From: Verrucomicrobiota bacterium | GTDB taxonomy: Bacteria > Verrucomicrobiota > Verrucomicrobiia > Limisphaerales > Palsa-1400 | Assembly: GCA_049510745.1 (NCBI GenBank) | Contig: JBEKYR010000019.1 | Coordinates: 14,231 to 78,230, forward strand | Direction: 5' to 3' | DNA length: 64,000 nt | Shown here: positions 1 through 29,097 of the stretch, piece by piece | Numbering within the stretch: the first letter of the stretch is position 1 | Layout: every line of letters begins with the position of its first letter | Made by a program: the position numbers and the translations under genes | Notes under the pieces: model-generated | What the model was told of the DNA's origin: nothing | Seen by the model: only the letters and a program-made list of their open reading frames with translations | Databases searched by the model: none

Positions 1-2493
1 CATGTCTTTGCCAACATCCAGACGCCTTTCGCGTTCCGCGTCTTCGCCGGCGACACCTTCACGCGCAGCGTCGCGGTGAAAGTGTGGCCCGCGCCGCGCC
101 TCCAGGACGCGGCCTTCCGCGTGACGCCGCCCGCTTACTGCGGGCTGAAGCCGCAAAGCGTCTCCGGCCCGCCCGCTCCGCTGGCCGTGCTGGCGGGGTC
201 ACAGGTGGAAATCTCCTTTGCCATCCAGCCGCCGGTGCAGTCAGCGACCTGGAAGCTCGGCGGAAATTCGGTGGCCTTCGGCGGCAACAGTTCGCACTGG
301 AAGGCGGTGGCCGCCGTCACCAACTCGGGCGCTTACGAAATTGAGGCGGCCTACCAACTCGGCGGCAAACCCCTGGCCGTTGCGCGCGGCGACGTCCAGA
401 TCATTCCTGACAATCCGCCGGAAGTCGATTTTGTCACCGAAGACCGCAATCGGCTCGTGCAGTTCGGACAGACCCTCCAGCTCGAGATTCTGGCCCGCGA
501 TGATTTCGGCCTGGCCGAGATTGCGGTGGTCGCGCGGCCAACGGAAAAGGACGAGCCGGGCCGCGTGATCAAACGCTGGACCTATCTGGGTCCGCCGGGC
601 AATCCGGGGCCTCTCCGCGAGTCGTTCTCGTGGGTCGTTGATCCGCGCCTGTTCGAGTCCGGCGCCTCTTACTATCTGGAGGCCTTGGCCAATGATTTCC
701 GCCCGGGCGGCCTTCCGTCCCGTTCGCGGCCGATTGTGTTGCGCCTGAAATCCTCGGATGACCTTGCCTTGCGCGACGACGATCCGCTGAAGCCCGCTTT
801 CGACGCGCTCAAACGCGCCAGTGCCGCTCAGGAAAGAGCCACTCGCCTGACGGCGAACCTGCGCACGTACCTTCACGACGTCCTCCAAAAGAACAGCCTG
901 GCCAGCCAGGTCAATGCCGTGAGCGCGCCACAGAACGAAGCGCGCGGTCATGCTTCCGAAGCCCTGTCACTCTTCAGCCAGCAAACCGACGGCAAGCCTT
1001 ACGCCGAGACTTTGTCCGGGCTGGTCCATCACGACATGGCGGCGGCGCAGGACGACCTTCGTTCCCTCTACGGGGCGGCTGAGAGTGGACTGCCCGGCCT
1101 GCTTGCCGGCCTTGAAACACGCCAGGGGCGGATTCTTACCGGTTTGCTCAGTTTGCTGGGCCAGATTGCCGACGCGCGAACCACCCCGCTCAACGCCGTC
1201 GCCGAAGGCAAGAACTCCAATCAAACCCCGGCCACGGACGAGGCCCGGGCGCGCGAATGGATGGAGGAGATGAAGAATTTCGTGGCCGAGCAGGAGCGCC
1301 TTCTGGAGAAGAGCCGCACGCTGGCGGCCAAGGAGCCGGAGGATTTGACTCAGGCCGACGAGGCGGTTCTGGGCGAATTGTCGCGCGACGAGGACAAGTG
1401 GGCCAAGTTTCTGGAGGAGAAACTGACCGATTTCAGCAAACTGCCGCAGCAGGATTTCGCCGATGCGTCCCTGGCGCGGGAGGGCAACTCGGTCTTCCAG
1501 GAGGTGCAGGAGGCCGCCGAGGCGTTGACCCAAAAGAATATCGAATTGGCCGTGCCCCACGAACAATCGGGCCTCGAAAATGCCAAGGAGCTTGTCAACA
1601 ATCTCGAACGCTGGCTGCCCGACACGCCGGACAATATCAAGTGGAGCATGGAGGAACCTCTCGCTCCGACGGACATCGCCCTGGCCGAATTGCCGAAGGA
1701 GCTTGAAGATATTGTGGGCGAATTGCTCGATAAGGAGGAGCAAATGACGCCCGAGGTCGAAGACGTCACCAGTTCCTGGTTGGATTCCGCCGACAAAGAA
1801 GCCGGCTGGGACGCGATCGATGGGCCGATTTCCGACATGAGCACCAAAGGCGTCACCGGAAATCGCCTGCCCAATCAGAACGAAGTCGGCGGACGTTCCG
1901 GCGAAGGCCGCACCGGCCGCAGTCACGGCCAGATGGTTGGCGACACCGCCGAAGGCAAAGGCGGGCGCGAAACGCCGACACGTTTGGAGCCGGAGCCTTT
2001 CGAACAAGGCAGCGTCAAGGACTCCGCGAAAAACGATTCCGGCGGCGCGACCGGCGGCGGCAAATTGTCCGGCTTTGGAGGCGAGGGGCTGCGTGGTCCC
2101 GCCCCGCCGCCGTCGAGCCAAAAACTGCCGCGGCTGGCCGAGCAGCAGGCCAAAATCCGGCAGCAGGCCGAAGCCCTGGCGCTGCAATTGCGCCGCTATC
2201 ACCTCTCCGGCGGCGAATTGGAAACGTCTGTCAACGCCATGAACCGGCTCGAACAAGCCGCGCACAAGGAGGACGGCCTGGGCGTGCGCCGGGCTTTCAG
2301 CCAGGCGGTGAACTCCCTCGGCGCCGCCAAAAATACCGTGCAAAGCCAGGCCGCCGTTCGGCGCGAGCAGGACAAGCTGCCGCCCTGGGTGCGCGAGCAA
2401 ATGCGCGTCGGCGTCCAGGACGGCGTGCCTAAAGGCTATGAGGAAATGGTCGCCGAGTACTATCGCGCGCTGGCCGAAGGAAGAAGCCAATGA
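1..2493 (+). CDS. Large DUF4175-like coiled-coil protein with Ig-like domain, 5'-truncated by the window edge
   Basis: Frame is open from base 1. Contains D-x-P-P-x-V and A-x-D-D-F-G-L motifs, a long helical region, a Gly-rich stretch and a C-terminal VPKGYEEMVAEYYRAL tail typical of such proteins. Confidence 0.6.
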   Translation, partial: HVFANIQTPFAFRVFAGDTFTRSVAVKVWPAPRLQDAAFRVTPPAYCGLKPQSVSGPPAPLAVLAGSQVEISFAIQPPVQSATWKLGGNSVAFGGNSSHWKAVAAVTNSGAYEIEAAYQLGGKPLAVARGDVQIIPDNPPEVDFVTEDRNRLVQFGQTLQLEILARDDFGLAEIAVVARPTEKDEPGRVIKRWTYLGPPGNPGPLRESFSWVVDPRLFESGASYYLEALANDFRPGGLPSRSRPIVLRLKSSDDLALRDDDPLKPAFDALKRASAAQERATRLTANLRTYLHDVLQKNSLASQVNAVSAPQNEARGHASEALSLFSQQTDGKPYAETLSGLVHHDMAAAQDDLRSLYGAAESGLPGLLAGLETRQGRILTGLLSLLGQIADARTTPLNAVAEGKNSNQTPATDEARAREWMEEMKNFVAEQERLLEKSRTLAAKEPEDLTQADEAVLGELSRDEDKWAKFLEEKLTDFSKLPQQDFADASLAREGNSVFQEVQEAAEALTQKNIELAVPHEQSGLENAKELVNNLERWLPDTPDNIKWSMEEPLAPTDIALAELPKELEDIVGELLDKEEQMTPEVEDVTSSWLDSADKEAGWDAIDGPISDMSTKGVTGNRLPNQNEVGGRSGEGRTGRSHGQMVGDTAEGKGGRETPTRLEPEPFEQGSVKDSAKNDSGGATGGGKLSGFGGEGLRGPAPPPSSQKLPRLAEQQAKIRQQAEALALQLRRYHLSGGELETSVNAMNRLEQAAHKEDGLGVRRAFSQAVNSLGAAKNTVQSQAAVRREQDKLPPWVREQMRVGVQDGVPKGYEEMVAEYYRALAEGRSQ

Positions 2494-3140
2494 ACCCCGC
2501 CCTCGTTGCCGCTTTTCTAGTTCTATTGTTGACATCCGTCCCCTGCCCCGCCCAGGCGAATTCGGTTTTGCCTCACGGCGACTTCGAGCAGCCCGACCCG
2601 CGGGACCCCGCCAAGCCGGCCGGATGGGATCGCGTCGATGGCCTGGGCGTTCAGTGGATCGAGGCCCCCGACGCCGCCCACGGAAAGGCCATCCGCATGG
2701 ATACCCGCGTCAGTGAGCAGGCCATGCAGGCGCAATGGGTCAAGCGGGGTCTGACCAATTTGTGGAACATCCCCAAGCCGGAGAAAAATGCGATTGCCGA
2801 AACCTACGGCCTCTCGCTCTATTCCGACCCGATCCCCGTCAAACCCGGCCAGGCCTATCGAATTACGTTTGATTACCAGGGTCCCGACCGCGGGGCCAAG
2901 GTCTGGGTGCGCGGCTGGGGCGTGTTCCAAGGCGAAAAACGGCGGCGCTGGGAAACCACCGTCACCTGCCATTGTACGAATGGCACGTGGACGACCTGCA
3001 CCCAGGTCTTCCATCCCACGCGGGCGCGCCCGGAAGTCACCGAAATGCGGGTGATGCTCTTTGCTTATTATCCCGCGGGCGTCTCATGGTTCGACAACGT
3101 CCGCATCGCGCCAGTCAACGAGCCGGAGAAACCGAAATGA
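2490..3140 (+). CDS. Secreted protein with a carbohydrate-binding/galactose-binding-like jelly-roll domain
   Basis: Signal peptide, HGDFE start motif, PVKPGQAYRITF and WFDNVRI end motif; ATGA overlap with the upstream gene. Confidence 0.6.
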   Translation: MNPALVAAFLVLLLTSVPCPAQANSVLPHGDFEQPDPRDPAKPAGWDRVDGLGVQWIEAPDAAHGKAIRMDTRVSEQAMQAQWVKRGLTNLWNIPKPEKNAIAETYGLSLYSDPIPVKPGQAYRITFDYQGPDRGAKVWVRGWGVFQGEKRRRWETTVTCHCTNGTWTTCTQVFHPTRARPEVTEMRVMLFAYYPAGVSWFDNVRIAPVNEPEKPK

Positions 3141-4285
3141 CGCCCCCCGCGTTAGCTTGGTTCGCCGGCATGATGGATCGTTGTCATGAATTGGCGGAAG
3201 CGGCCAAGGCGCAAGGCCGGCCCATCGTGGGCATGATGTGCGAATTTACGCCGCGCGAAATCATTCTGGCCGCCGGCGCCGTGCCGGTCTGCCTTTGCGG
3301 CGGCTCCGCCGCGACCATCCCGCCGGCGGAGCAATTCCTGCCGGCCAATCTCTGTCCGCTGATCAAGTCCACCTTCGGTTATCACGTCACCGGAAAAAAT
3401 CCGTTTCTGAATTGGGCGGATTTGGTCGTGGCCGAGACGGCCTGTGACGGGAAAAAGAAAATGTTCGAGTTGATGAGCGCCACCAAACCGATGTATGTGC
3501 TCGAACTGCCGCAAAAGGCCGATGACGCCGACGCCCTGGAACATTGGACGCAGGAGGTGCGCAAGTTCAAGGAGCATATCGAGCAACGGTTTCAAACGCG
3601 CGTCACGGACGAAAAACTTCGCGACGCCGCCCGGCTGATGAACCGCGAGCGTGGATTGCGCCGGCAACTGGCCGCCCTGCTGGCGCGCGAGCCGCCGCCG
3701 CTGACGGGACGGCAATTGATTGAGTTCAAAAGCATTATTTCCGGCATCGAAGCGGACCTTCAGCAGTATGAGCGGGCCGTCCAGTGGTTCGGCGACAACC
3801 CCGGTTCTCCCCCGCCCGGCGCCGGGAAAATTCGTGTTCTGCTGACGGGTGTGCCGATTGTCCGCGGCGCGGAGCGGGTTTTGGAACTGATCGAAGACGC
3901 CGGCGCGGTCGTGGTCGCCATGGAGAACTGTACCGGCCTCAAACCGATACTTGACGATGTGGAATTGGACGGGCCGGAGCCTCTTCGCGCCATTGCCCGG
4001 AAATACTACCACCTCCCCTGCTCCGTTATGACGCCGAACACCCGGCGCTTCGACATGCTTCGCTCGCTGGCGGCGAAATTCCGTCCGCATTGCGTCATCG
4101 AGCTGATTTGGCAGGCGTGCCTCACCTACGACATTGAGTCGTTCCACGTCCGCAAACTGGCTGAGGAAGAACTCCGGCTGCCTTACCTGAAAATCACGAC
4201 GGATTATTCGCCGTCGGACTCGGCTCGAATTTCGGCGCGCGTCGAAGCCCTGTTTGAAACGATCCGCGCCAAAGAATCATTATGA
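3137..4285 (+). CDS. Double-cubane-cluster-type anaerobic reductase (2-hydroxyacyl-CoA dehydratase/HgdD family)
   Basis: Cys pattern CEFTP, LCGGS, NLCPLIKS, ETACDGKKKMFE, ENCTG, PCSVMTPN, QACLTY plus TDYS. Start reset to ATG 3137, which overlaps the previous stop. Confidence 0.8.
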   Translation: MTPPALAWFAGMMDRCHELAEAAKAQGRPIVGMMCEFTPREIILAAGAVPVCLCGGSAATIPPAEQFLPANLCPLIKSTFGYHVTGKNPFLNWADLVVAETACDGKKKMFELMSATKPMYVLELPQKADDADALEHWTQEVRKFKEHIEQRFQTRVTDEKLRDAARLMNRERGLRRQLAALLAREPPPLTGRQLIEFKSIISGIEADLQQYERAVQWFGDNPGSPPPGAGKIRVLLTGVPIVRGAERVLELIEDAGAVVVAMENCTGLKPILDDVELDGPEPLRAIARKYYHLPCSVMTPNTRRFDMLRSLAAKFRPHCVIELIWQACLTYDIESFHVRKLAEEELRLPYLKITTDYSPSDSARISARVEALFETIRAKESL

Positions 4286-5088
4286 AATCAGCACCGCAAA
4301 TTCATCTCTCCGATGTCCAGGCCGTTTATTCCGGGCCGGAAGGCCGGCTCTGGGAACTGCTCATGGGCGAACAGATTCACCTCGGCGGTTTCCAGTCCTC
4401 GATGGACCTGGCGCAGCGCGCCGGCATCACCGCCGGCTGGGAGGGCGTTGACCTCTGCTGCTGCACCGGCGCCGGCATGAGGTTTTTGGCGCGCTTCCTC
4501 AACGTGGCGCGCATGACCGGCGTGGACGCCACGCCCGCCGTGCTGGCGCTGGGCCGCCGCCGCTGCGCCGAGGAAGGCCTGGCGGAAAAAATCTCGTTCG
4601 TCGAAGGCAACGCCTGCGCGACTGGCCTGCCTTCCGGCCAGTTCGATTTCGTGTGGGGCGAAGACGCCTGGTGCTACGTCGAGGACAAGGCGAAGTTAAT
4701 CGCCGAAGCGGCCCGGCTGCTCAAACCGCGCGGCAAAATCGTTTTCACCGACTGGATGGAAGGCCCGGCCGGATTGACCGGGGCCGAAGCCGGCCGCTAT
4801 CTCGGTTTCATGAAATTTCCCAACGTGCTCACTCTCGGCGAATACCAGTCGCTGCTCCAGGCCAACGGGTGCGCGGTGCATCTTGCGCAGGATACCGGCC
4901 GCTTTGCCGCCAGCGTGTCGCTTTACCTCGACATGATCGAAAAACAATTGACCTACGACGCGCTGAAGATCATCGGCTTCGACCTCGCGCTGGCGCAAAG
5001 TCTCGCCGGTGAAATGCGTTTTATTCAATCGCTCGCCGAGGCTGGAAAAATCATCCAGGGCCTTATCGTCGCGGACGAACCCCGGTAA
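4282..5088 (+). CDS. Class I SAM-dependent methyltransferase
   Basis: Motif I-like VDLCCCTGAG, GVD, FDFVWGEDAWCYV, LLKPRGKIVFTDW. Confidence 0.85.
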   Translation: MKSAPQIHLSDVQAVYSGPEGRLWELLMGEQIHLGGFQSSMDLAQRAGITAGWEGVDLCCCTGAGMRFLARFLNVARMTGVDATPAVLALGRRRCAEEGLAEKISFVEGNACATGLPSGQFDFVWGEDAWCYVEDKAKLIAEAARLLKPRGKIVFTDWMEGPAGLTGAEAGRYLGFMKFPNVLTLGEYQSLLQANGCAVHLAQDTGRFAASVSLYLDMIEKQLTYDALKIIGFDLALAQSLAGEMRFIQSLAEAGKIIQGLIVADEPR

Positions 5089-5102: not shown

Positions 5103-6071
5103 ATGGACGTGTTCCTCACCAGCCCGTGGATTCCCGCCGAATGGATCCGGGCGCACGGCTTGCAGCCGCGGGGCCTCTGGGCGGCGGAAAATCTCCAGGG
5201 CGGCGCGTGGCCGCTTTCCGCCGGCGACTGCGCGTTTGCGGAGGCCGTGGTGCGGTTTGCCGAGGCGCGCACGGATTCCGCCGTGATTTTTTCGACGGCC
5301 TGCGACCAGCTCCGGCGCGGCTTTGACGCCGTCGTTCTCCACGGACAGGGCCGCGCGTTTTTGTTCAACCTGCCGGCCACGTGGCAGACGGCAGCGGCCG
5401 GGCAAATTTTCCGCTCGGAGCTGGAGCGGCTGGGACAATTTCTTTTGTCCATCGGCGGCCGCGCGCCGCCGGCGGAGGCGTTGCGGCAGGACATGTTGCG
5501 TTCCAGCCGGACACGCACGCGTTTGCTCGAATCAGCGCCGGCCAGTTCTCCGCGCGGGTTTGCCGAAGCCGTGGCGCGATTTCATGGCGACGGCTCTTTT
5601 TCGCCGCCGCCGCCGGACGCGCCGACAACTCAAATTCCGCTCGCCCTTGTCGGCGGCCCGTTTCCGGCGCCGCACTGGAAATTGCTGGACGAATTGGAAG
5701 CCGCCGGCGGACGCGTCGCGCTGAACGCCACCGAAACAGGCGAACGCAGCCTGTCGCCGGCGTTTGAATTTGAGGGCGGCGCAAACCATCCGTTCGACGC
5801 GCTGGTCCGCGGCTACTGCGACCACATTATTGACGTGTTCCAGCGGCCGAACACGCGGCTTTATTCCTGGCTGAAGCCGCGGCTGGCATCCCGCCGCGTG
5901 CGCGGCATCGTGCTCTGGCATTTCACCGGCTGCGATCTTTGGCGGGCGGAGGCGCAGACGTTGCGGGAGACTTTTGGCCTGCCGGTCTTGCTGCTCGAAG
6001 CCGGCGGAGAACCGGGCGCCGCGCCGCGCGAAATCAACCGCCTCCAGGCTTTTGTGGAAACGCTCAAATGA
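5103..6071 (+). CDS. Divergent 2-hydroxyacyl-CoA dehydratase-family subunit
   Basis: WIPAEWIRAHG, DCAFAE, STACDQLRR, GCDLW and a C-terminal RLQAFVETL; shorter and with fewer Cys than 3137-4285. Confidence 0.7.
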   Translation: MDVFLTSPWIPAEWIRAHGLQPRGLWAAENLQGGAWPLSAGDCAFAEAVVRFAEARTDSAVIFSTACDQLRRGFDAVVLHGQGRAFLFNLPATWQTAAAGQIFRSELERLGQFLLSIGGRAPPAEALRQDMLRSSRTRTRLLESAPASSPRGFAEAVARFHGDGSFSPPPPDAPTTQIPLALVGGPFPAPHWKLLDELEAAGGRVALNATETGERSLSPAFEFEGGANHPFDALVRGYCDHIIDVFQRPNTRLYSWLKPRLASRRVRGIVLWHFTGCDLWRAEAQTLRETFGLPVLLLEAGGEPGAAPREINRLQAFVETLK

Positions 6072-7453
6072 ACGCTCCGCCGCGCAAATTGAACCTGGAC
6101 CAGTGGGACGACCGCTACGAGCAACTTCGGCGGGACGGCCTGCGCGAACCCGGCTACGGCGGCCCGTTGCGCCGTCATGTCGCCCGCGAGAAGGATTTCC
6201 GGCTGCAACATTTGCAGTTCGACAACTCGCCCGCCGCGCTGCGGCTCTGGAATTTTCTGCTGACGGAAAACGAGCGGCTGCACCAGGCCCGCGCCAACGG
6301 CCACAAACTTGTCGGCACGATGAAAGACCTCGGCACCGTGCCGGTCATGGCGTACGCGCTGCCGGGCATGCGGGCGTTTTATCCGGACGGCGCGTGGTGG
6401 ACGCCCTGCCTGATGGAATGCAGCGACATGCTGTTGCAACAGGCGGAAAAAATGGGCATTGACGCCTCGTTTTGTCCGGTGCGCGCGATGCTGCCGGCCT
6501 TGGTGAATGGCGGGCATTTCCCGCGGCCGGATTTGCTGGTTTGCAGCGCCGGCGCAATCTGCGATGATTTTTCCGCCATCGCGCAACGTCTGGAACATCT
6601 GGGCCATTCCATTCTTTGGTGGGAAATCCCGCGCCGCCGCCCCCCTGCTTTGGGCGAAACGGCCTGCGCGCTGCCGGGCGATCTCGCCGCGCCGAAAATT
6701 CAAGTGGACTGCGTGCGGACGGAATTGCAGCGCGTGGGCAAGGCGCTGGGTGAACTGGCCGGAAAAACCCTGGACAACGACTGTTTGGCAGCTGCGATTC
6801 GCGCGGCCAACCAAGTGCGCCGGCGGCTGGACTCGTTGCGCCGGACCGTTTATTCCGCCGCCGCCGCGCCGCTGCCCGCCCTGGAAATGCTCGTCGCGGA
6901 AATGCTCGCGCTTCATTTCTGCTCCGACCGCGAGGAAACCATCGCCGTGCTCGACGCCTTGCTGGCCGAGGTTGAAGGGCGCGCGCGGCGGAACCAGTTT
7001 GTGGTCAGCGCCAAGGCGGTACGGATTTTCTGGGTGAATCCGGTGGCGGATTTGCGCGCCATGAACTTGCTGGAAGAAATTGGCGGACGCATTTGCGGTT
7101 CGGATTACATGTTCACCCACGCCTTGGATTTGATTCCCGAGAATCTGCCGCCGCTGGAAGCGCTGGCCCGCACCGCGCTGGCCGATTTGATGGTCGGCCC
7201 GACAGCCGAGCGCGCGGCGCGCATCGTCCGCGAATGTCAGGCCAACCGCGCCGAGGCCGTGGTCGTGTCGCGCATTCCCGGCGCGAGCCACTGCGCGCGC
7301 GAGGGAAAAATCATCCTCGAAATTGTGCGGCGAAAGATCGGGATTCCCGCCCTCGAACTTGAAATTCCGCCGGTGTGCGATGCCCTGCGGCCGAGCCTCG
7401 CCTCGCGGTTGCAGGCCCTGGTTGAAACCGCCCAGGCCAGGAGGACAAAATGA
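6068..7453 (+). CDS. 2-hydroxyacyl-CoA dehydratase-family subunit
   Basis: FCPVRA, AICDDF, GASHCARE and RLQALVE end. Start at ATG 6068 overlaps the upstream stop. Confidence 0.7.
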   Translation: MNAPPRKLNLDQWDDRYEQLRRDGLREPGYGGPLRRHVAREKDFRLQHLQFDNSPAALRLWNFLLTENERLHQARANGHKLVGTMKDLGTVPVMAYALPGMRAFYPDGAWWTPCLMECSDMLLQQAEKMGIDASFCPVRAMLPALVNGGHFPRPDLLVCSAGAICDDFSAIAQRLEHLGHSILWWEIPRRRPPALGETACALPGDLAAPKIQVDCVRTELQRVGKALGELAGKTLDNDCLAAAIRAANQVRRRLDSLRRTVYSAAAAPLPALEMLVAEMLALHFCSDREETIAVLDALLAEVEGRARRNQFVVSAKAVRIFWVNPVADLRAMNLLEEIGGRICGSDYMFTHALDLIPENLPPLEALARTALADLMVGPTAERAARIVRECQANRAEAVVVSRIPGASHCAREGKIILEIVRRKIGIPALELEIPPVCDALRPSLASRLQALVETAQARRTK

Positions 7454-8241
7454 TTTGCGCCGGCATCGACGCGGGTTCGCGCTCCATCAAGGCGCTGCTG
7501 TTCGACACCGACCGGGCGCAAGTTCTTGCCTCCGGCCTGGCCGACCAGGGCGTGGAACAAGAACGCCTGGCAGCGGAACTTTTCGCGGCGCTTTTGCGGG
7601 AGGCGGGACTGGAGCGGTCGCGCGTTTCCGGCGTGGTGGCCACCGGCTACGGACGCCATGCCATCCGTTTCGCCGACACCACCATCACCGAGATCACCTG
7701 CCACGCGCGCGGCGTCCACCGGCTGGCGCCGGACGCGCGCACGATTGTCGAGATCGGCGGACAGGACAGCAAGGTCATCTGCCTCGAAGACGGCGGGCGC
7801 GTGCGCGATTTTGCGATGAACGACCGCTGCGCGGCGGGCACGGGACGCTTCCTGGAGATGGTCGCGGCGCGGCTGGACATGAATTGGGAAAAGCTGTCGG
7901 AACTGGCGCGCCAGAGCAAAAAGCCCGCGCTCATCAGCAACATGTGCGTGGTCTTCGCCGAGACGGAAATCATCGGCCTGCTGGCGGACGGCCAGCCGTT
8001 GGCGGACGTGGTGGCCGGCGTGCAAAACGCCATTGCCACCCGCGTGGGGGCGCTGGCCGGGCGGTTCGTTTCGCCGCCGGTTTATTTCACCGGCGGCGTC
8101 GCGTTGCTGGCCGGCATGGCCCGCGCGCTGGAGGAGGTTTTGGCTTGTCCGGTCCGGGTCGCGCCGCGGCCGCAATTCACCGGCGCGCTCGGCGCCGCGC
8201 TGTCCGCCCGCGCGGCCGAGCCGCCCGGCGGCGGCCTATGA
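7450..8241 (+). CDS. Acyl-CoA dehydratase activase / ATP-dependent [4Fe-4S] electron donor (HgdC/BcrAD/BadFG family)
   Basis: GIDAGSRSIK, ATGYGR, TEITCHARG, EIGGQDSK, MNDRCAAGTGRFLE, GALGAAL. Confidence 0.92.
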   Translation: MICAGIDAGSRSIKALLFDTDRAQVLASGLADQGVEQERLAAELFAALLREAGLERSRVSGVVATGYGRHAIRFADTTITEITCHARGVHRLAPDARTIVEIGGQDSKVICLEDGGRVRDFAMNDRCAAGTGRFLEMVAARLDMNWEKLSELARQSKKPALISNMCVVFAETEIIGLLADGQPLADVVAGVQNAIATRVGALAGRFVSPPVYFTGGVALLAGMARALEEVLACPVRVAPRPQFTGALGAALSARAAEPPGGGL

Positions 8242-8313: not shown

Positions 8314-9723
8314 ATGCCGGATCAAAAACAGGAATTGCTGCGAGCGCTGCCAGCCATCACTGACTTGCTGAAAAGCGAAACCGCCGCCGGCTGGCTCCGG
8401 CAACATCCGCAGCCGCTTGTGACCGAATGTCTGCGCCGCGCGCTGGCCGGATGGCGGCGGCAAATCCTCGATGACGCCGCCAGCCCTGGCGGCACGGAGC
8501 ACCTCAGCGTTGAGACGGTGCTGGCACAGGCGGAAAAATTTCTCCAGGACGCCACCGAACCGCGCCTGCGCGAAGCCATCAACGCCACCGGCATCATCCT
8601 GCACACCGGCCTGGGCCGGGCGGTTCTGTCGGCGGGCGTGGTGGATTCGATGATGGACGAGTTGAAGGGTTATTGCACGCTGGCCGTGGACCGCGCCTCC
8701 GGCGAACGCGCCGGGCGCGATGAATTGGTGGAATACATCTTGACGGAACTGACCGGCGCCGAGGCGGCCACGGTCGTCAACAATAACGCCGCTGCCACCC
8801 TGCTGGCGCTGGCGGCGCTGGCGGCGCCCAAGGAAGTCATCGTGTCGCGCGGACAGCTCATTGAAATCGGCGGCTCCTTCCGCCTGCCGGAAGTGATGGC
8901 GCAAAGCGGCGCGCGGCTCGTCGAAGTGGGCGCGACCAACCGCACGCATCTCAAGGATTACCAAAGAGCCGTCACGGAAAATACGGCGGCAATCCTGCGG
9001 GCGCATCCCAGCAATTATCGCGTCGTCGGTTTCACCAGCGAAGTCGCGCTGCGCGATCTGGCCGAACTGGCCCACGGCCGCAATTTGATTCTGATGGATG
9101 ATCTCGGCGCGGGCGCGTTGGTGGATTTGAAACGCTTCGGCCTGCCCCACGAGCCGACCGCGCGCGAATCCATCGAAGCCGGCGCGGACGTGGTCCTGTT
9201 CAGCGGGGACAAACTCATCGGCGCCGGCCAGTGCGGCGTGATCGTGGGGCGAAAGGCGTTGATTGAAAGACTCCGCCAACATCCGCTCATGCGCGCCGTC
9301 CGCGTGGACAAAATCTGCCTGATGGTTCTGGAGCGGACGCTGCACCTGTTCCGCGACCCGGCGCGGCTGGCACGCGAGCATCCGATCTACCGCATGATCA
9401 GCACGCCGCCGGAAGAGTTGAAATCGCGCGCCCAGGAACTCGCGCGCCTGATTTCCGCCGAAGCTCCCAAGGCCGGAATTGAAATCGCCGAAAGCGAGGC
9501 CTTCCTCGGCAGCGGCTCGTTGCCGACGGAGGCGATTCCCAGTTTTGTCGTGACGGTTTCCCTGCCGGAAATGAGCGCCGCCGAACTGGCGCGGAGGCTG
9601 CGGTTGGATCGCGCCTGCGTTTTTGGACGCATCGAAAACGACCGGGTCTGCCTGGATGTGCGCACGTTGACCGGCGAACAAGTGCCGGCCGTCGCCGCGG
9701 CCTTTGGCCGTCTCGTCGCATGA
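8314..9723 (+). CDS. selA: L-seryl-tRNA(Sec) selenium transferase
   Basis: INATGIILHTGLGRA, VNNNAAA, SRGQLIEIGGSFRLP, EVGATNRTH, FSGDKLIG (PLP lysine). Confidence 0.97.
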   Translation: MPDQKQELLRALPAITDLLKSETAAGWLRQHPQPLVTECLRRALAGWRRQILDDAASPGGTEHLSVETVLAQAEKFLQDATEPRLREAINATGIILHTGLGRAVLSAGVVDSMMDELKGYCTLAVDRASGERAGRDELVEYILTELTGAEAATVVNNNAAATLLALAALAAPKEVIVSRGQLIEIGGSFRLPEVMAQSGARLVEVGATNRTHLKDYQRAVTENTAAILRAHPSNYRVVGFTSEVALRDLAELAHGRNLILMDDLGAGALVDLKRFGLPHEPTARESIEAGADVVLFSGDKLIGAGQCGVIVGRKALIERLRQHPLMRAVRVDKICLMVLERTLHLFRDPARLAREHPIYRMISTPPEELKSRAQELARLISAEAPKAGIEIAESEAFLGSGSLPTEAIPSFVVTVSLPEMSAAELARRLRLDRACVFGRIENDRVCLDVRTLTGEQVPAVAAAFGRLVA

Positions 9724-17487: not shown

Positions 17488-17506
17488 CGGCCACGCCACG
17501 TGGCCG
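17488..17506 (-). promoter_or_regulatory. Candidate SECIS hairpin for the CPTU protein
   Basis: 7-bp perfect stem; GUGGC loop starts 21 nt after the UGA. Confidence 0.7.
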
Positions 17507-17510
17507 GAAT

Positions 17511-17885
17511 TCATCTTATTCAGGTGGGACAGGGCGTTTTTGCGCCGAGGTCCACGCGGATTTTCCACGCCGGCGGCTGGGTATGGGCCTGTTGTTTGGC
17601 CCAGCGGTCAAGCGCCTCGCCGGGATTGGCCACGGCATCGAGTTTCGGCGGCGGCGGCGGCGCGACTTGGTCCGGGTATTGCAAACCGCCGGAGGAGAAG
17701 GCTTTGACCAACTGCGTTTCCCACGCCGTGTTTCCGTCCGTGGTGTCCACGTTGGTCAGATGCCGCGCGCCGCTAAACAGCAGCGCCGCGCCGGTCAGCG
17801 CGACAACCAAGCCGGACCAGAAATCGTGGTCTTCCCGCGCGCGCGACGCGCGATTGACCGGTGGCTGGGGGACTCGCTTGAACAT
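17511..17885 (-). CDS. Putative small single-TM selenoprotein ending C-P-T-U-I-R (Sec at UGA 17522-17520)
   Basis: ATG 17885 lies just downstream of selC; one hydrophobic helix. The UGA completes a CxxU motif and is followed by hairpin CGGCCAC-GTGGC-GTGGCCG. The next in-frame UGA (17513-17511) is taken as the stop. Confidence 0.7.
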
Positions 17886-17903: not shown

Positions 17904-18000
17904 TGGCGGAGGTGGATGGGAATCGAACCCACCTGGGACTTTGTTGAGTCCCACGCTGGTTTTGAAGACCAGGAGCGCCACCAGGTCGCCCCACACCTCC
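17904..18000 (-). tRNA. selC: tRNA-Sec (UCA)
   Basis: 97 nt, GGAGGTG...CACCTCC-GCCA. Anticodon arm CTGGT-CTTCAAA-ACCAG, long variable arm TGGGACT/AGTCCCA, TTCGATT T-loop. Confidence 0.97.
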
Positions 18001-18997: not shown

Positions 18998-19005
18998 TCA
19001 CGCGC

Positions 19006-22000: not shown

Positions 22001-22326
22001 TGCTGGCGGTTTTCGGCTTGAGCCGGGCCGACCTTTCCAAGGCGGAACACGTCGCCGCCGCCGTGCGCGCGCTGGCCGCGCGCATGCCGACCTACATCAC
22101 GATCAAGGATGTCAAGAAGCGCTGGGGCCACGGCCAGGAAGACGTGTTCCCGGTCAGCCAGTTTGAGAAACTGTGGGTGAACATGACCGCGTTGCCGGAA
22201 GTGAAAACGCGCTTTGTCGTGGTGCCGCGCCTGCGGGGACAACAGCTCAAGGACCAGGCGCAACTGGACGGCTGGCTGCGCGATGGCTCGGCCGATTTCG
22301 TCAACCAGCTTTGTGCCTGGCCGTGA
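19006..22326 (+). CDS. Bifunctional GHMP-family sugar kinase / UDP-sugar pyrophosphorylase
   Basis: [36 protein letters not shown] in the N-half; [30 protein letters not shown] in the C-half. Confidence 0.8.
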
Positions 22327-22376
22327 ATACGGATTGATATTGCAGTAAGCCCTTCGATTTGCTAATAGCCTGTCTA

Positions 22377-24476
22377 ATGGCAAAGCAAAAGACTGGTGGC
22401 TTATCATGGCGCTGGCTGGGAACCGCCGGGGTGGCTTGCTGGACGTGTGCGCTGTTGGTTGTGCTTTGCTCGGAAAACAGGCTTCGCGCGGCTGATTCTC
22501 TTCTTTCCGGTTCTCCGTCCTCAAACGCCGTCATGGCTGCGCTGGAGTATCAGGAAACAGACTCTGGCGTCATCAACTGGGGCGTTTCCCTGACGCCGCG
22601 GACCAGTCCTTTCAAAAAAGAGCCGGCGGCGGCTTCGGGCAAAATCATTCGCGGCGTTTTGAATTTCGGCGCCGATTCCAGCAACTCCATTCCCTTTCTC
22701 TGGCAGTGCCAGGCGGGAAAACTTTACCTCGACCTCAATCGCAACCAGGATTTGACCGACGATCCCTCCGGCCTGTTCTTGGCGCGCGCCGCGAAGCCGG
22801 ATAATTACCAGACCTTTGCGAACGTCCACCTGCTTTTCAACACCGCTTCCGGCAGGTGCCGGGTGCTGGCGGACCTCTCCTTCTGGGACTACAGTGCGCC
22901 GCCAATTTGCAGCTTCGCGGTGCGCTCGTTCTGGCAAGGCAAACTGAGGTTGCAAGGGCGGGATTGGCAGGTGGGCATCGTCCCGAATATCCTGGACCGA
23001 TCGGGCTTGTTCGAGAACAGCCGGTTGCTGCTGCGTCCCTGGGATAAACGAAGCCAGCCGTTCAACGCGGATGATGGGTTGCTCGCCACTGTTCCCTTCT
23101 CGCGGAAACTTTTTGTGGATGGCCACGCCTATCAACTGGAGTGCGTCGCCCGTTCGCAAGACGGCGAAGCCAGGCCCGCGCTCCAATTCACGGAACAATC
23201 CGTCGCGCTGGGCGAAGTGAAAATCACCGGCCAATTCATCCGCCGCCTTGTTCTGCAGGGCGAGGCGTTCCTGGTGGTGCTCGATCAGCCGGCAGGCGTC
23301 GTGAAAATCCCGGCCGGCAGCTATCACCAGCCCGAGATCCTGCTCGAACAAGACGGCGTCGCGGCCTTCTCCCGCAATTCCGGCCAGTGGCAAATTGGCC
23401 GGCAGATTTCCGTGCGCGACAAGGCACAGGTGGCATTGAACGCGGGCGGGCCGTTGACCAATTCCGTCGCCACCGGCCGCCACGGTCAGGATTTGCGTCT
23501 GGATTATTGCCTGCTCGGCGTGGGCGGCGAAACTTACCAACTGGCCAGGCAAGATCGCTCCAAGCCGCCGGAGTTCGCGGTTTACAAGGGCGGAAAAAAA
23601 ATCGCGTCCGGCAGATTTGAGTTTGGCTGAGGCAACACCTGCTCGCACTCATGGCGAGTGCCTCTCACCGCCGGCGGCAAACTGTCCCTTGTGGCTTCGT
23701 CCGACCTCGGAGCGCTCGGTGCGAAGGAAGGTCCGGCGGTCATCTACGACTGGGTGTTGCCCAGCCTGGCGCCGCTGTTGCTGCCGTGGCTGGTCATTCT
23801 GGGATTGCTCACCTTGAAACGGAATCGTTGCGCGGCCGCGTGGTGGATTTGGCTGCCGCTCGGATATGTGATCGCGTTTACGTTGGCGCCGCTGGACATC
23901 ATGCCCGCGGGAACAGATTTTTTCCTGGATGTCATCGCGGCGCTGGCGGCGGGGCTGGGCGCGGTCTGGCTCCTGACAGATTATCTCCGGCGGCCACATC
24001 GGTTCGTTACGTTTCTGTGCCTCCTGCTCGCCTTGGCCGGTTTCAGCGCGCTGGCCTTTGTGTCCGCACAAAGCTGGAGTTTCACGTCGGAAACATTTGT
24101 GGCCGGCATCGTTCTGGCCGTGGGCGTGGTGGTCAGTGCGGTGGCGTTGAGTCTGGCCGGGCTGATCTGCCGCGGCCGTTATCGTCGCGTCGGCCTTTAT
24201 GGGTGGCTGCTCCTCTTGCTGGCCGTCATCTGGCTGGTGATCACCGGGCCTTTCTTTTTGTTCGCGCTCATCGCTTCAGGCGGAAGAGTGTCTTGGGGCG
24301 GATTCTTTGTTCCCGTTTTTGCGTTGGTGACGCTCCATTTCGCCACCCTGCTGCCGTTCCTGATCCTGTCCTCGGCCAGCCCGTTTTACCGCCAACGGCT
24401 CAAGGCCCTGCTGCACGTCACACCGGAAGCGCCGCCCGTGCTGGCGCCTTTGCCGGATGCCGGTTTAAAAACTTGA
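22377..24476 (+). CDS. Putative exported, membrane-anchored selenoprotein (FEFG-U-GNTC; Sec at UGA 23628-23630) joining track ORFs 22359-23630 and 23658-24476
   Basis: The two ORFs share a frame and are separated by a single UGA with no other stop. The read-through motif matches the paralog at 24508, and a hairpin follows. Architecture is an N-terminal hydrophobic segment, a soluble domain and a multi-TM C-terminus. Confidence 0.8.
23645..23661 (+). promoter_or_regulatory. Candidate SECIS hairpin
   Basis: GCACTC-ATGGC-GAGTGC; loop starts 21 nt after the UGA. Confidence 0.75.
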
Positions 24477-24507: not shown

Positions 24508-25779
24508 ATGAAACTTTCCAAACAACTGTTCCTGGCCGGAATGGTTCTCGCCGGCGCCGCCTTCGCGCAATCCGAGCAATGGCTGGAATACCACACCGGC
24601 GCCGAGGGCCGCGCCTACCAGCAGGTGGAACTGACCACCAATCCGCCCCCCGGCGTCGCTCTGCCGAAGTTCAATGCGCCGCCCTATTTCGCCCGCTGGC
24701 TCACGCCGATGGACCCCGCCGGCGGGCGCTGGCTCTGCCTGGACCGCACGCGCAAGTCCGGACCCTATGACCGGCTGTTCTTTGACAACAACGGCAATGG
24801 CCGGCTGGACGACAAATCGCCCCTCCCGGCGCGGCTGGATTCCTCCTTCGCCTATTTTCCGCCAGCCCGCGTTGTGTTCAAGGGCGAGGACGGGCCGATC
24901 ACCTATCATCTTGTCTTCCGCTTCTATCAATACGAAAAGAATCCCCCGCAATTGCTGGCCTCCTCCGCCGGCTGGTATGAAGGTCTGGTCAATTTCGACG
25001 GCGCGAAAAAGCGCATTCAACTCATCGACGGCAACGTCAACGGCACGTTCAACGACGTCGCCCCGGACCCGTATGACTGCGACCGCGTCCAAGTCGAGGG
25101 CGACAAGACCAGCGAACGGTTTTTGGGCCGGATGCTGGAAGTGGACGGGAAGTTTTACCGGATCGAAGCCGCCCGCGACGGCGCGTTCGTCAAAGTGCAG
25201 AAGGCGGAGAACGTCACCCTCGGCCAGGTGCGTGTGCCGGAAAACATTTCCGAATTCGCCGCCTTCGGCCCGAACGGCCATTTCGTGCGCACACCGGCGG
25301 ACGGCCAATTCACCTTGCCGGCGGGCCATTACCGGATTTTCCACTGGACGATCAGCCGCAAGGATGAAAAGGGCGCGCCGTGGACGCTCTCAGGCTATAA
25401 TTTTCCCAAAACCGCCACCTTCGAGGTCGCCGCCGATAAGACCGCCTTGGTGCAAATCGGTGAGCCGGTGCAAGCCGTGCTCAAGGCGGCGGAGGGCGCC
25501 AAGCGTCAAGTCGATTTCAGCCTCAGCTTCGTGGGCCGGCAAAAGGAATCCATCGAGATGCTGTGCGACGGCCAGCGCCCGCGCGGGCCGAAATTGACGT
25601 TGGCCAACAGCGACGGGACGCTGTGTTATACGAACACTTTCGAGTTTGGATGAGGCGGCGTTTGCTCGCTCTCATGGCGGGAGCCTAAAAATGTGCGGCG
25701 TCCGTTGGTTGGCGGCGTCAAAATTTTCAGCCCGTTCCAGGTGCTGACGAGTCCGTTGACGCTCGCGCCAAAAAAATAA
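24508..25779 (+). CDS. Putative secreted selenoprotein (FEFG-U-GGVC; Sec at UGA 25651-25653)
   Basis: Signal peptide ending AFA. Read-through adds GGVCSLSWREP...APKK and ends at TAA 25779, 12 nt before the next ATG. Has a DNNGNGRLDD loop resembling the paralog's DLNRNQDLTDD. Confidence 0.8.
25668..25684 (+). promoter_or_regulatory. Candidate SECIS hairpin
   Basis: GCTCTC-ATGGC-GGGAGC; loop starts 21 nt after the UGA; compensatory changes relative to 23645-23661. Confidence 0.75.
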
Positions 25780-25791: not shown

Positions 25792-28700
25792 ATGAAAACG
25801 ACACGGCAATTCCTTCTGGTCTCTGCCGCTTGGGCGCTCCTGGGCGTCAGCACGCACGCCCAGACGCTGGAGCGGGTGGGGGTTCAAAAAGTGGCGGACA
25901 CAGCCACGAACGCTGGCGCGCAAAAACTTACCGGAACGGTCACCGACGCCGCCGGCCATCCCCTGGCCGGCGCGACGGTGGAGTATTGGCGTTACGAGGG
26001 AAATCGGCTCCTGGCGAGTCCCTTGGAATTGATCGGGCAAATCACTACGGAAACGAACGGCGCTTTTGAATTCCAACTCTCGCGGGCGGCCGGATTCCTC
26101 CTGGCACGAAAGCCGGGCCTGGCCCCGGCCTGGATACAATTGGGCCAGCCGTATCCTTCCGTCGGTGACAGGGGAGAGAATTTGATGCTGACTCCGCCCG
26201 CGGCGCTGGCGGGCGTGGTGGTGGACGAAGCGGACAAACCTGTTCCAAACGCCCGGGTTTCCGTGGCCATTGCCATCTCCGAAATGTCGCAGGAGGAGGG
26301 AGCGCGAAGTCTTAATTATTTCACTGGCAAACCCGCGCGCGATTGTTTTGCCGCCCGCACGGATGCCGCCGGCCGTTTCCGCATCGAGAATTTTCCGACC
26401 AATGGCACGGCCGCCCTGACCGTTCAGGCGCCGGGAAAAGCTCTGCGCCAATCACCGCAGGAAGCCGGCGGCATGGACTCGCTGCCTTGGCGCGCGGGCC
26501 AGCAAGACATCAAATTGGTCGTGGAACCGGCCGGCAGCGTCGAAGGAAGGATTATCGTCGAGGGCAGCAATCAACCGCCGCCCGTCGCGCGGCTGACGTT
26601 GCAGCCCGATGGGCCGGGCTTTGCCGCGCTTGACGAGCGCGAGCCGGCGCCATCCGGCGCGGACGGCGCGTTCCAACTCAGCGACGTGCCCGCCGGTTCT
26701 TATCACATTCATGCCGTCTTTGGAACCAATGCCGTTCCGGAATGGGTCGCAGACATGGTTCCAGTTTCGGTTGAGTCCGGCCAACCCACGCGCGGCGTGC
26801 AGGTGACTGCGGTGCGCGGCGGCGTGCTGGAAGTGGCCGTGCTGGGTCAAAATGATCGCAAACCACTGGCGCAAATTATGGTCAATGCCGTCAAGGAGAA
26901 TTTTCAATCCGCCGCCAGTTCGGACAGCAACGGCATCGCTCTCCTGCGGCTGCCGCCTGGAGATTATCAGGTGGCGGCGTTTCGTGAATCCATGCCCGCG
27001 AGCCAGACTCCCGCCAGCGTGGAAGCCGGCAAAACCAACCGCGTGGAGATTGAAATCGCCCCGCCGAGAAAAATCACCGGCATCGTCCGCCAACCGGACG
27101 GCCAGCTGGCGGCGGGGTTGCGGGTGAGATTGGTGGGTGGGTTTGGCCCCGGGGCGGGCGAAGTCAAGACCGATCCCGGCGGCCAGTTTAGTTTGGAATG
27201 GAATCAGCGCCGATTCGGACAGAACGACACGACTGCCTGCGTTCTCGTGCGGGACGCGGAACACAATCTGGCCGTGGCGCAGGACATTGACGAAGACACC
27301 GGCCCGCTCGACCTGAAACTCGCGCCGGGGCTGACGCTGGCGGGCCGGGCGGAATCCGACGGCAAACCCCTCACGAACGCGGCCGCCGCGCTGATTTTCT
27401 TTACCGGCAGAAGGGGCATGCACCTCGCCGGATTGAGCCGCGAAACCAACACGCCGGGCCGGTTTGAAATTCCCGCCATTCCGCCCGGACGAAAATACGG
27501 CGTCCTGGTCTCCGCTCCGGGTTACGGACAGAAGGCGAATTACGATGTGAATGCCGCCGCCGAAGGTGGCCGCATGGAACTGGATCCCTTTGAGCTTAAA
27601 CCTGCCAACCTCAAACTCGCCGGCCAGTTGCTCGACGCGGACGACAAGCCGGTCGCAGGCGCCTATGTGAATCTTTACGGAGAGGGCCAGCCCAGTGCAA
27701 ACGCGCGCACGGACCGCGAGGGTCGCTTCCGCTTCGAGCATGTCTGCGAAGGCCCGGCTCGAATCTCGGCCAACAAGCAGAATTCATTCGGCAATATGTC
27801 GGCGGAAGGCGGCGACACCAACGTCGTTCTGCGGCTCGGTCAAACCCTCAACAACTCCCCGGGTTCCACCGCCCATAAACTCAAAGGCACTGTGACCGAC
27901 CCCGACGGCAAACCCGCCGCCGGCGCGCAGTTGGCGGTGTTTCCGTCCTTTGATGTGAGTTGGACAAAGACCGCGACCAACGGCGCCTTCAGCCTCACTT
28001 GGTCGCTCCAGCCCTGGCAAATGCAGCAGTCAGGCGGCGCCGCGCTGCTGGTGGCCCGCGACCCGGCCCGCAATCTGGCCGCCACCGAAGAGTTGCCGGA
28101 GGAAACCACCAACCTCGACGTGAAATTGAAACCGGCCCTGACCGTCACCGGACTGGTTGAAAAAGATGACGACTCTCCACTCGCGGGCGCGCAGGTCGGT
28201 GTCTGGCTCAAGGCGGGCAACATGTACGACCAGTTGAACCAACAAATGGCTGGGACCGACGCCCAAGGCCGCTACGAAATCAAGTGCCTGCCGCCGGATG
28301 CGTCATACATTGTTTTCGCCACCGCCAGCGGCCACGGTCGAAGCCAGCAGCAAGTTCAGAACGATTCCGAAACAAACCGCGTGGAACTATCGCCCTTCGT
28401 CCTCAAGCTGGCCGACCGTTTTTTGGCCGGCCAGGTGCTCAACGAAAATGACAAGCCCGTTTCCGGCGCGAACGTGTCGTTGAATGGCGAAGACCAGCCC
28501 CAAGCCAGCATGACCACCGACAGCAAGGGCCGCTTTCACTTCCAGGTTTGCGAAGGGCAGGTCCGCCTCTTCGCCAATTCCCCCCAAGGCGGTGAATTCG
28601 CGCAAGCCACCGCCGAAGCGGGCGACACCAACGTCGTGATGACTTTGAGTTCCCAGGCGGGGAATATCCGCGAGACACCGCACCGCGCCTCGCTCAAAGG

Positions 28701-29097
28701 CAGTCCGCTGCCGGACTTGGCGGCCGTCAATCTCGCCGGCGACGCCGCCCCCGCCGGCCAGCCGGTGTTGTTATGCCTGTTCGACGCGGGCCAGCGTTCG
28801 TCGCGACACGTCGTCCACCAGTTGGATGGACAGGCCCCCGCGCTGCGGCAGCAAGGCGTCACGGTGCTGGGCGTTCAAGCCGCGGTCACCAGCGATGACA
28901 TACTCAACGAATGGAAAAGCGCCAGTCCGGTTTCATTCCCGCTCGGACGCGTGGCGGAGAAATCCGAAAAATCAAAATGGGCCTTGGCCGTTCCGGCCTT
29001 GCCGTGGCTGATCCTGGCCGACGCCCATCATCGCATCATCGCCGAAGGCTTCCCGCTCGACGACCTGGACGCGCAGATCAAAACCCTGGCCAAGTGA
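25792..29097 (+). CDS. Secreted protein with repeated carboxypeptidase-regulatory-like beta-sandwich domains and a C-terminal thioredoxin-like fold lacking CxxC
   Basis: Many G-x-V-x-D-x-x-G-x-P-x-x-G-A and TDxxGRF repeats. C-terminal GQPVLLCLFDAGQRSSR...LPWLILAD resembles TlpA/redoxin. Confidence 0.75.
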   Translation: MKTTRQFLLVSAAWALLGVSTHAQTLERVGVQKVADTATNAGAQKLTGTVTDAAGHPLAGATVEYWRYEGNRLLASPLELIGQITTETNGAFEFQLSRAAGFLLARKPGLAPAWIQLGQPYPSVGDRGENLMLTPPAALAGVVVDEADKPVPNARVSVAIAISEMSQEEGARSLNYFTGKPARDCFAARTDAAGRFRIENFPTNGTAALTVQAPGKALRQSPQEAGGMDSLPWRAGQQDIKLVVEPAGSVEGRIIVEGSNQPPPVARLTLQPDGPGFAALDEREPAPSGADGAFQLSDVPAGSYHIHAVFGTNAVPEWVADMVPVSVESGQPTRGVQVTAVRGGVLEVAVLGQNDRKPLAQIMVNAVKENFQSAASSDSNGIALLRLPPGDYQVAAFRESMPASQTPASVEAGKTNRVEIEIAPPRKITGIVRQPDGQLAAGLRVRLVGGFGPGAGEVKTDPGGQFSLEWNQRRFGQNDTTACVLVRDAEHNLAVAQDIDEDTGPLDLKLAPGLTLAGRAESDGKPLTNAAAALIFFTGRRGMHLAGLSRETNTPGRFEIPAIPPGRKYGVLVSAPGYGQKANYDVNAAAEGGRMELDPFELKPANLKLAGQLLDADDKPVAGAYVNLYGEGQPSANARTDREGRFRFEHVCEGPARISANKQNSFGNMSAEGGDTNVVLRLGQTLNNSPGSTAHKLKGTVTDPDGKPAAGAQLAVFPSFDVSWTKTATNGAFSLTWSLQPWQMQQSGGAALLVARDPARNLAATEELPEETTNLDVKLKPALTVTGLVEKDDDSPLAGAQVGVWLKAGNMYDQLNQQMAGTDAQGRYEIKCLPPDASYIVFATASGHGRSQQQVQNDSETNRVELSPFVLKLADRFLAGQVLNENDKPVSGANVSLNGEDQPQASMTTDSKGRFHFQVCEGQVRLFANSPQGGEFAQATAEAGDTNVVMTLSSQAGNIRETPHRASLKGSPLPDLAAVNLAGDAAPAGQPVLLCLFDAGQRSSRHVVHQLDGQAPALRQQGVTVLGVQAAVTSDDILNEWKSASPVSFPLGRVAEKSEKSKWALAVPALPWLILADAHHRIIAEGFPLDDLDAQIKTLAK

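Follow-up and report, generated by a model that had tools for sequence, protein, structure and literature searches.

A candidate four-module selenocysteine-dependent system with a double-cubane reductase in Verrucomicrobiota and Planctomycetota

What use does a bacterium make of a complete selenocysteine (Sec) machinery encoded next to an ATP-driven, double-cubane-type reductase? The question is raised by a 64,000-nt window of a Verrucomicrobiota genome (assembly GCA_049510745.1, 5.6 Mb, 94% complete; contig JBEKYR010000019.1), which is the whole stretch of DNA analyzed here, and specifically by its positions 2490-29097, the interval under study. Lists of open reading frames (ORFs) combined with Pfam and NCBIfam matches resolve this interval into four modules. 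Module I, tightly packed or overlapping on the plus strand, comprises genes for a double-cubane protein (DCCP), a methyltransferase, two HgdD-like subunits (Hgd2, Hgd3) and an activase. Module II contains selA, selB, a gene for a SelD-AhpD fusion and the tRNA-Sec gene. In module III, the gene of a small membrane protein ending in Cys-Pro-Thr-Sec (the CPT-Sec protein) lies upstream of that of a NapH-like Fe-S membrane protein, and module IV encodes two exported FEFG-Sec-G-x-x-C paralogues, Q and R, together with a large beta-sandwich protein, S (Table 1). The modules very likely form one functionally coupled system. That the interval represents a conserved selenocysteine-dependent four-module system of the Planctomycetes-Verrucomicrobia-Chlamydiae (PVC) superphylum, handling selenium or a related chalcogen, is the reading we favor, tentatively, since comparison of sequences leaves it close to evenly balanced.

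An earlier reading of the same sequence, here called the original prediction, had proposed a selenium-dependent redox system with exported components in this interval. The parts it named, a double-cubane reductase, two further HgdD-family subunits, an activase, a methyltransferase, a full Sec machinery, a polyferredoxin and three candidate selenoproteins, were all recovered by the matches and in-frame UGA codons of Table 1. Its secreted thioredoxin-fold protein was not: none is encoded in the interval, and no ORF in positions 1-32000 matched a thioredoxin-type Pfam family.

Table 1 Features of the interval and the observations on which each assignment rests
Module	Feature	Position	Strand	Basis and remarks
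I	DCCP	3137..4285	+	NF040772 401.1 bits (cut-off 350); start ATG 3137 inferred
I	Class-I SAM-dependent methyltransferase	4282..5088	+	Pfam Methyltransf_11/25
I	HgdD-like subunit 2 (Hgd2)	5103..6071	+	PF06050 1.2e-23; syntenic in all fetched operons
I	HgdD-like subunit 3 (Hgd3)	6080..7453	+	PF06050 3.2e-33; start approximate, ORF open from 5939
I	ATP-dependent activase (HgdC/BcrAD type)	7450..8241	+	PF01869 4.4e-57; TIGR00241 238 bits (cut-off 125)
II	SelA	8314..9723	+	PF03841 1.4e-137
II	SelB	9720..11669	+	GTP_EFTU and SelB winged-helix domains
II	SelD-AhpD fusion, Cys-type	11699..13288	+	TIGR00476 322 bits; ahpD_dom
II	tRNA-Sec (selC)	17904..18000	-	ARAGORN; Rfam RF01852 70.7 bits
III	NapH/MauN-like membrane Fe-S protein	16593..17477	-	Pfam Fer4_5
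III	CPT-Sec protein, 124-aa single-pass membrane selenoprotein ending C-P-T-Sec-I-R	17511..17885	-	Sec codon 17520-17522
III	SECIS-like hairpin of CPT-Sec gene	17489..17505	-	GGCCAC-GUGGC-GUGGCC
IV	Q, exported beta-rich domain with FEFG-Sec-GNTC and C-terminal polytopic membrane region	22359..24476	+	Sec codon 23628-23630; start uncertain, ATG 22377
IV	SECIS-like hairpin of Q	23645..23661	+	
IV	R, secreted 423-aa paralogue, FEFG-Sec-GGVC-SLSWREP	24508..25779	+	Sec codon 25651-25653
IV	SECIS-like hairpin of R	25668..25684	+	
IV	S, secreted 1101-aa protein, seven CarboxypepD_reg beta-sandwich repeats	25792..29097	+	Pfam

Are the three in-frame UGA codons read as selenocysteine? Translated under table 11, Q and R stop at FEFG-TGA, and in both the frame continues as G-x-x-C-S-x-S-W-R; the 3' end of the CPT-Sec gene reads K-T-P-C-P-T-TGA-I-R-TGA. 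Each gene carries a hairpin resembling a selenocysteine insertion sequence (SECIS). Twenty-eight sequences of the Q, R and CPT-Sec genes align gap-free from the UGA and share a 6-bp stem spanning +18 to +34 with a loop of five bases, mostly AUGGC; double compensatory changes occur in three of the six stem pairs. A covariance model trained on these same three genes, and therefore able to miss other SECIS shapes, returned only the UGA sites of Q, R and CPT-Sec at E<=5e-6 from the 5.6-Mb genome, with the next match at E=4. A strict pattern scan gave 15 matches, with a plausible frame only for the same three sites.

The Sec site is also the best-conserved part of the proteins. Every strong match to R among related genomes contains exactly one TGA and an alignment that reaches the last residues of the query, and in an alignment of 11 sequences conservation peaks in the segment E-x-G-Sec-G-G-x-C-x-L-S-W-R-E-P, which stays invariant down to 38% identity. 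Across species genomes of GTDB (loci L058-L137), 130 of 131 motif genes at 80/80 loci have TGA at this position and one has Cys (FEYG-C-GGTC). Relatives of the CPT-Sec gene likewise have one TGA each, and the core P-x-x-C-[PS]-T-Sec, followed by two residues and a stop, is invariant across both phyla. By these sequence criteria Q, R and CPT-Sec are all genuine selenoproteins, and they belong to two families that no catalogue lists. Neither family has a fitting entry among the 119 families in Table 1 of a 2026 review (PMC13188914) or a match in Pfam or NCBIfam, and full-text literature searches for them came back empty. Comparison with published catalogues, suggested along with the original prediction, accordingly leaves both selenoprotein families as unlisted; the link between DCCP and SelD, by contrast, had already been published by Haft and Gwadz.

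Many FEFG-Sec proteins appear as fragments in public records. Among the matches listed, 120/120 (of 598 database matches) stop at FEFG, and in a profile search of 1.84 billion proteins (2310 matches) 127 of the 150 best representatives end at the aromatic-Gly pair before Sec; gene callers truncate or split these selenoprotein genes in at least hundreds of records. Six full-length database relatives have neither Sec nor Cys at the Sec site; homologues with Cys in place of Sec are common for bacterial selenoproteins but are no requirement. In one Sec-less and Cys-less relative, P0153, the R domain lies behind a BlaR1/M56-like membrane domain with a HELAH motif, a fusion which suggests that the R-type scaffold can also act as a sensor domain. 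A short FEFG-Sec form of ~290-340 aa with N-terminal membrane helices and the motif [FL]-[ED]-[YA]-G-Sec-G-G-[ST]-[CL] occurs at four loci (L041, L045, L046, L047); the copy in genome G213 is without the Cys.

Which reductase accompanies these selenoproteins? The closest solved relatives of DCCP are PDB 6eno and 7yyl (E ~1e-59), the DCCP/DCCP-R of Carboxydothermus hydrogenoformans, which belong to the same family by curated model and by sequence and have an HgdC-type partner ATPase, encoded here near the DCCP gene. Seven cysteines, the candidate cluster ligands, are spaced C-X18-C-X18-C-X29-C-X161-C-X29-C-X32-C; their order is that of the published pattern CX19CX18-19CX29CX166-170CX32-34CX32C, and the pattern in its strict form is unmatched. 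Unlike the Carboxydothermus gene, that of the interval shares its operon with SelD, a methyltransferase and two additional subunits of the HgdD-like type. Hgd3 has no solved relative detectable by sequence. The S-adenosylmethionine (SAM)-dependent methyltransferase finds its top NCBIfam match in the DVU_1556 family (60 bits, under the cut-off of 155), alongside weak matches of the ArsM type. It is present in the operon in nine of ten relatives' genomes with a DCCP over cut-off, being absent only from G008, and in 3/3 Planctomycetota operons; the G021 operon is divided between two loci (L038 and L039). Besides its methyltransferase-free operon, G008 (L035, L024) has two tandem Q paralogues. An in-frame TGA in Hgd2 of G030 (L034 ~5095, G030:C11, CDQMRRA-TGA-DAL) was considered as a further Sec codon. 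It is without a SECIS-like hairpin, and the corresponding residue is Cys in G014 and Phe, Ala, Val, Leu or Met in others; this TGA is probably a sequence error or the mark of a pseudogene.

The SelD that follows in the interval is unusual. An N-terminal Cys-rich extension (11699-11830; motif C-I-C-x5-C-P-C-x9-C-P-C; no Pfam match), which we take to recall the CPC motifs of ferredoxin-thioredoxin reductases, precedes the SelD domain, and a C-terminal AhpD/CMD domain with C-Q-P-C follows it; this is the sole CMD match in the genome. Among 41 related genomes the full-length fusion occurs in exactly the 11 that are positive for DCCP. The eight other SelD-bearing relatives are all without the AhpD domain; their SelD genes have an in-frame TGA in five (G005, G018, G027, G028, G029), TAA in one and no stop in two. 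Within the order there are two SelD classes, the Cys-type SelD-AhpD fusion found with DCCP and a shorter, Sec-type SelD in Sec-using genomes that have no DCCP.

Gene order ties this fusion to the reductase. Module I is followed by selA-selB-selD in G000, G002, G006, G008, G014 and G021, and SelD comes directly after the module I operon in G030 and G293. In the planctomycete G341, the divergent SelB and SelA genes precede the order methyltransferase-DCCP-Hgd2-Hgd3-activase-SelD/AhpD-CPT-Sec-NapH, and Q comes next; G342 and G344 have the identical six-gene operon beside selA-selB. The operon of DCCP, methyltransferase, HgdD pair and activase is therefore, as read from these gene orders, physically merged with the Cys-type SelD-AhpD fusion and with selA and selB.

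A tie between DCCP and selenium is already in print and is not new here. Haft and Gwadz (bioRxiv 10.1101/2022.07.06.499078; J Bacteriol 2023) report 955 of 970 strong NF040772 proteins from SelD genomes and a DCCP in every genome with their selenocysteine-assisted organometallic (SAO) locus, within 5 kb of it in 21/52; they also raise a Se-bridged double cubane as a formal possibility. A second study (PMC10418091) calls DCCP 'provisionally linked to selenium metabolism' and shows Firmicutes clusters in which it lies next to selABCD. The type 1 mlp clusters for methyl-selenium metabolism in that study combine DCCP, DCCP reductase, selABCD and methyl-transfer enzymes in anaerobes, and are read there as selenium salvage; they are mostly from Firmicutes and contain corrinoid methyltransferases and corrinoid proteins, whereas the set described here has a SAM-type enzyme and exported selenoproteins.

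The SAO locus is a close published parallel. It too has several exported or membrane selenoproteins, a strict dependence on the Sec machinery and a genome-level, often physical link to an NF040772 DCCP with its activase, and it is known from anaerobes only. By analogy, the exported selenoproteins of the interval could escort into the cell some organometallic or metalloid species, for instance one of As, Hg or Te, so that selenium would be a tool and not the cargo; DCCP and the HgdD pair would reduce that species, either to dispose of electrons or to gain energy, and making or remaking a methyl-metal(loid) bond would fall to the methyltransferase. Haft and Gwadz propose this logic for SAO, and the methyltransferase, with its ArsM-type matches, is a fixed member of the operon; the habitat is peat. 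We nevertheless consider this account unlikely for the interval. None of the nine Sao families is found there, with the proviso that the search control for SaoC matched nowhere either, and SaoP gave a generic match alone (109 bits; cut-off 295). An ABC transporter, a MerB-like lyase and metal-binding CU/CC dipeptides are all missing: the motifs are Sec-x-x-x-Cys and Cys-x-x-Sec. Unlike SAO, the operon here combines a SAM methyltransferase with an HgdD-like heterodimer and a fused SelD-AhpD, the system adds a NapH-like Fe-S protein, and the hosts are Verrucomicrobiota and Planctomycetota. SelD is embedded in the DCCP operon, which points to selenium as the substrate or product.

How might electrons reach the surface selenoproteins? 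The NapH-like protein shares with NapH, MauN, NosR and CcoG the CX3CP motifs in membrane segments and two C-terminal 4Fe-4S ferredoxin motifs, and 24 Cys/Pro positions are invariant in it. It reaches 44.5 bits against TIGR02163, below the cut-off of 213, and unlike the known polyferredoxins it is always paired with a small protein bearing a C-terminal Cys-x-Thr-Sec, with no Nap, Nos or Mau genes nearby. At 35 of 36 loci from both phyla, NapH is immediately preceded by an ORF ending C-[PSL]-T-Sec-x-x-stop, a linkage which marks the CPT-Sec gene as an obligate partner of the gene for the NapH-like protein. In the AlphaFold2 (AF2) model of the CPT-Sec protein (pLDDT 70), a helix at residues 12-41 is followed by a disordered tail (<50), and the redox dyad sits three residues from the C-terminus. 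A thioredoxin fold was considered for this protein and rejected: it has no Pfam or NCBIfam match, and its model shows one long helix, with the dyad close to the C-terminus. None of six CPT-Sec proteins from both phyla matched the CD1871A family (NF040920), even at E<=10.

The AF2 model of R is all-beta (pLDDT 80, pTM 0.70), with low confidence in the Sec loop. A Foldseek search with it gave nothing useful (TM<=0.15), and in VIA the best matches (Z 6.7 and 6.1) were Ig-like sandwiches only. These structures bear on a further account, in which the NapH-like protein, CPT-Sec, and Q and R would pass electrons along a periplasmic selenol/thiol relay of the DsbD/TlpA kind to keep the envelope in redox balance. 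Its targets would be damaged or disulfide-bonded envelope proteins or extracellular oxidants, and the DCCP-SelD tie would be a separate matter, for instance a selenium-containing cluster such as the published Se-bridged form. Redox-type motifs on exported proteins fit such a relay, as does the order CPT-Sec-NapH-Q-R on a single strand in G189 and G240. The absence of a thioredoxin-like fold in R speaks against it, and so does the nearly obligatory Sec of the FEFG-Sec family, which would be unusual for thiol-disulfide oxidoreductases; the SelD-AhpD fusion that tracks the whole set would be left unexplained. On balance we regard this relay as quite improbable.

Do the modules occur together elsewhere? 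We compared the 41 related genomes and 301 genomes sampled evenly from the phylum; none of the counts is corrected for kinship. Among the relatives, R is found in 10/41, DCCP over cut-off in 11/41, CPT-Sec in 10/41 and SelA over cut-off in 16/41. All ten R-positive genomes fall inside the DCCP-positive set, and within the window's own family the CPT-Sec set and the DCCP set are the same. G030 has R and DCCP with no match to CPT-Sec or SelA. Seven Sec-using relatives without DCCP are also without R, CPT-Sec and the AhpD fusion. In the phylum sample, with the R family in 8/301 genomes, DCCP over cut-off in 12/301 and SelA in 17/301, all eight R-positive genomes are positive for both DCCP and SelA. 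Uncorrected hypergeometric values are 3e-13 overall and 0.007 within the SelA-positive genomes; both exaggerate the association, since kinship makes the genomes non-independent. Of five R-bearing Planctomycetota genomes, three have a DCCP over cut-off; in a fourth the copy is broken, and the fifth is without one.

Neighborhoods were collected within 10 kb of R homologues at 80 loci, 44 from Verrucomicrobiota-type and 36 from Planctomycetota records. Q is a neighbor at 61, S at 51, NapH at 36 and SelD at 16 of these loci; Q-R-S behaves as a unit, and CPT-Sec and NapH are adjacent throughout. In G213, activase-DCCP, a short R-like gene, an S-like gene, NapH, SelA and SelB lie within 14 kb. Taken with the operons of both phyla described above, these loci establish at the level of gene content and order that in both Verrucomicrobiota and Planctomycetota the modules are found together, placed side by side in changing arrangements. 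The original prediction stood to fall if its components neither co-occurred nor clustered in other genomes; they do both, with DCCP in 10/10 and 8/8 of the FEFG-Sec genomes of the two samples, and with juxtaposition variable in Verrucomicrobiota.

What else in this genome would call for selenium? Across the whole assembly, none of the sequences that match Molybdopterin (two) or AhpC-TSA (14) is interrupted by an in-frame stop, and no SelU and no YqeB was found; GrdB had no match there, a search whose control likewise gave none. The absence of a classical selenoenzyme, first noted for the window, thus extends to the assembly as far as it is complete, and the proposal that the Sec machinery chiefly serves the proteins of the interval appears correct. 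Codon-usage scans for additional selenoproteins were insensitive and noisy and missed known sites. Their candidate at 60290 was rejected, being gvpF/L followed in frame by gvpG (59489-60562), with the TGA an ordinary stop.

A selenium-handling function is favored because the reductase operon incorporates a SelD equipped with a thiol-carrier domain, because no other use of selenium is visible in the genome, and because the formation of selenide is reported to require strong reductants. We propose, at somewhat less than even odds, that what the system handles is selenium or else a chalcogen or metalloid close to it. Beyond the cytoplasm, Q and R would use the Sec/Cys loops on their Ig-like scaffolds to capture selenium of low availability as Se-Se or Se-S adducts, with S perhaps serving as a binding scaffold. 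At the membrane, the flexible C-P-T-Sec tail, reduced via the NapH-like Fe-S protein, could relay selenium or resolve the adducts. Inside, the ATP-driven activase would load electrons of very low potential onto DCCP and the HgdD-like pair, which would use them to reduce the imported species to selenide; the CxxC of the AhpD domain may then pass selenide to SelD, and the methyltransferase may dispose of or modify a surplus. In this scheme cytoplasmic Fe-S reduction would be linked to redox chemistry at the cell surface, and we infer that the flow runs from capture outside to reduction inside.

Several observations weigh against this interpretation. The selenium-handling scheme has selenium fetched by a system that itself uses selenium, which is circular unless DCCP or the surface proteins bring a further benefit. 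It gives the SAM methyltransferase no clear role in assimilation, and the system has no transporter signature; the membrane region of Q looks like an anchor and not a transporter, because it has no conserved polar, Cys or His residues. The Fe-S clusters of E. coli NapH face the cytoplasm, and reduction of an outward-facing tail is hard to picture. Among the genomes, G021 has DCCP, CPT-Sec and SelA with no match to R; G102, G185 and G293 have DCCP and SelA without R; G266 has a DCCP over cut-off with no SelA match; and the planctomycete G343 has R with no DCCP match. At none of the 80 loci does DCCP, the methyltransferase, Hgd2 or Hgd3 lie within 10 kb of R. Modules I and IV are therefore linked only through the sel genes and through co-occurrence at the genome level, which shared ancestry inflates.

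The same distance between DCCP and R would be expected if the modules were a co-inherited island without functional unity, in which selenoprotein and sel genes cluster, the block is gained or lost whole and DCCP is a passenger typical of anaerobes. The patchy distribution would suit such an island, as in genus g3, where only one of four genomes has any of the modules, and so would counts uncorrected for kinship. Yet that one genome, G017, retains all four modules on four contigs, gene order differs from family to family and between phyla with the set of members preserved, and the seven Sec-using, DCCP-less relatives lack R, CPT-Sec and the AhpD fusion together. We judge a mere island very unlikely and retain a coupled, selenium-handling system as the preferred reading.

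Not all of positions 2490-29097 belongs to this system. Seven interspersed genes are not conserved with the set (0-1/80 loci), among them those at 2490-3140, a PIN pair, 14122-16416, 18128-18997 and 18994-22326; near R, the window genes A, B, K, L, P and T recur at no locus and O at one. Two sugar-nucleotide genes separate tRNA-Sec from Q. G+C is 58-66% across the window except for one 48% stretch at 14-16 kb. Flanked by selD and the NapH-like gene, a low-GC (0.48) insertion (13457-16416) that no other locus shares contains an 81-aa ORF and encodes a PIN-domain toxin and a protein of 764 aa whose only match, to HATPase_c_3, is faint; PADLOC gave no match for the PIN pair or the 764-aa protein. 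A scan for promoters and terminators stayed at chance level. Farther downstream, positions 32501-35740 encode a GH106 alpha-L-rhamnosidase with a GH2-type sugar-binding domain. Metagenomes from peat and wetlands contain the stretch.

Double-cubane proteins, which have no known natural substrate, can act as reductases on highly inert molecules, and when their near-perfect tie to SelD was reported it stood as a correlation without an explanation. Finding SelD inside the DCCP operon in two phyla, beside two unlisted selenoprotein families and a membrane Fe-S partner, turns that correlation into a defined gene set open to deletion, expression and assay. One carrier, 'Anaerohalosphaeraceae bacterium U12dextr', may be cultured (its record has no metagenome-assembled-genome label), which would make such tests possible. 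PVC bacteria of anoxic habitats might even possess a dedicated selenium-harvesting pathway, in which obligate surface selenoproteins (FEFG-Sec and CPT-Sec), reduced by way of the NapH-like protein, collect insoluble or organic selenium, and an ATP-driven double-cubane reductase with its HgdD-like partner supplies selenide to a specialized SelD-AhpD. This we regard as doubtful at present; if true, double-cubane proteins would thereby gain their first physiological role, and the published link with SelD an explanation.

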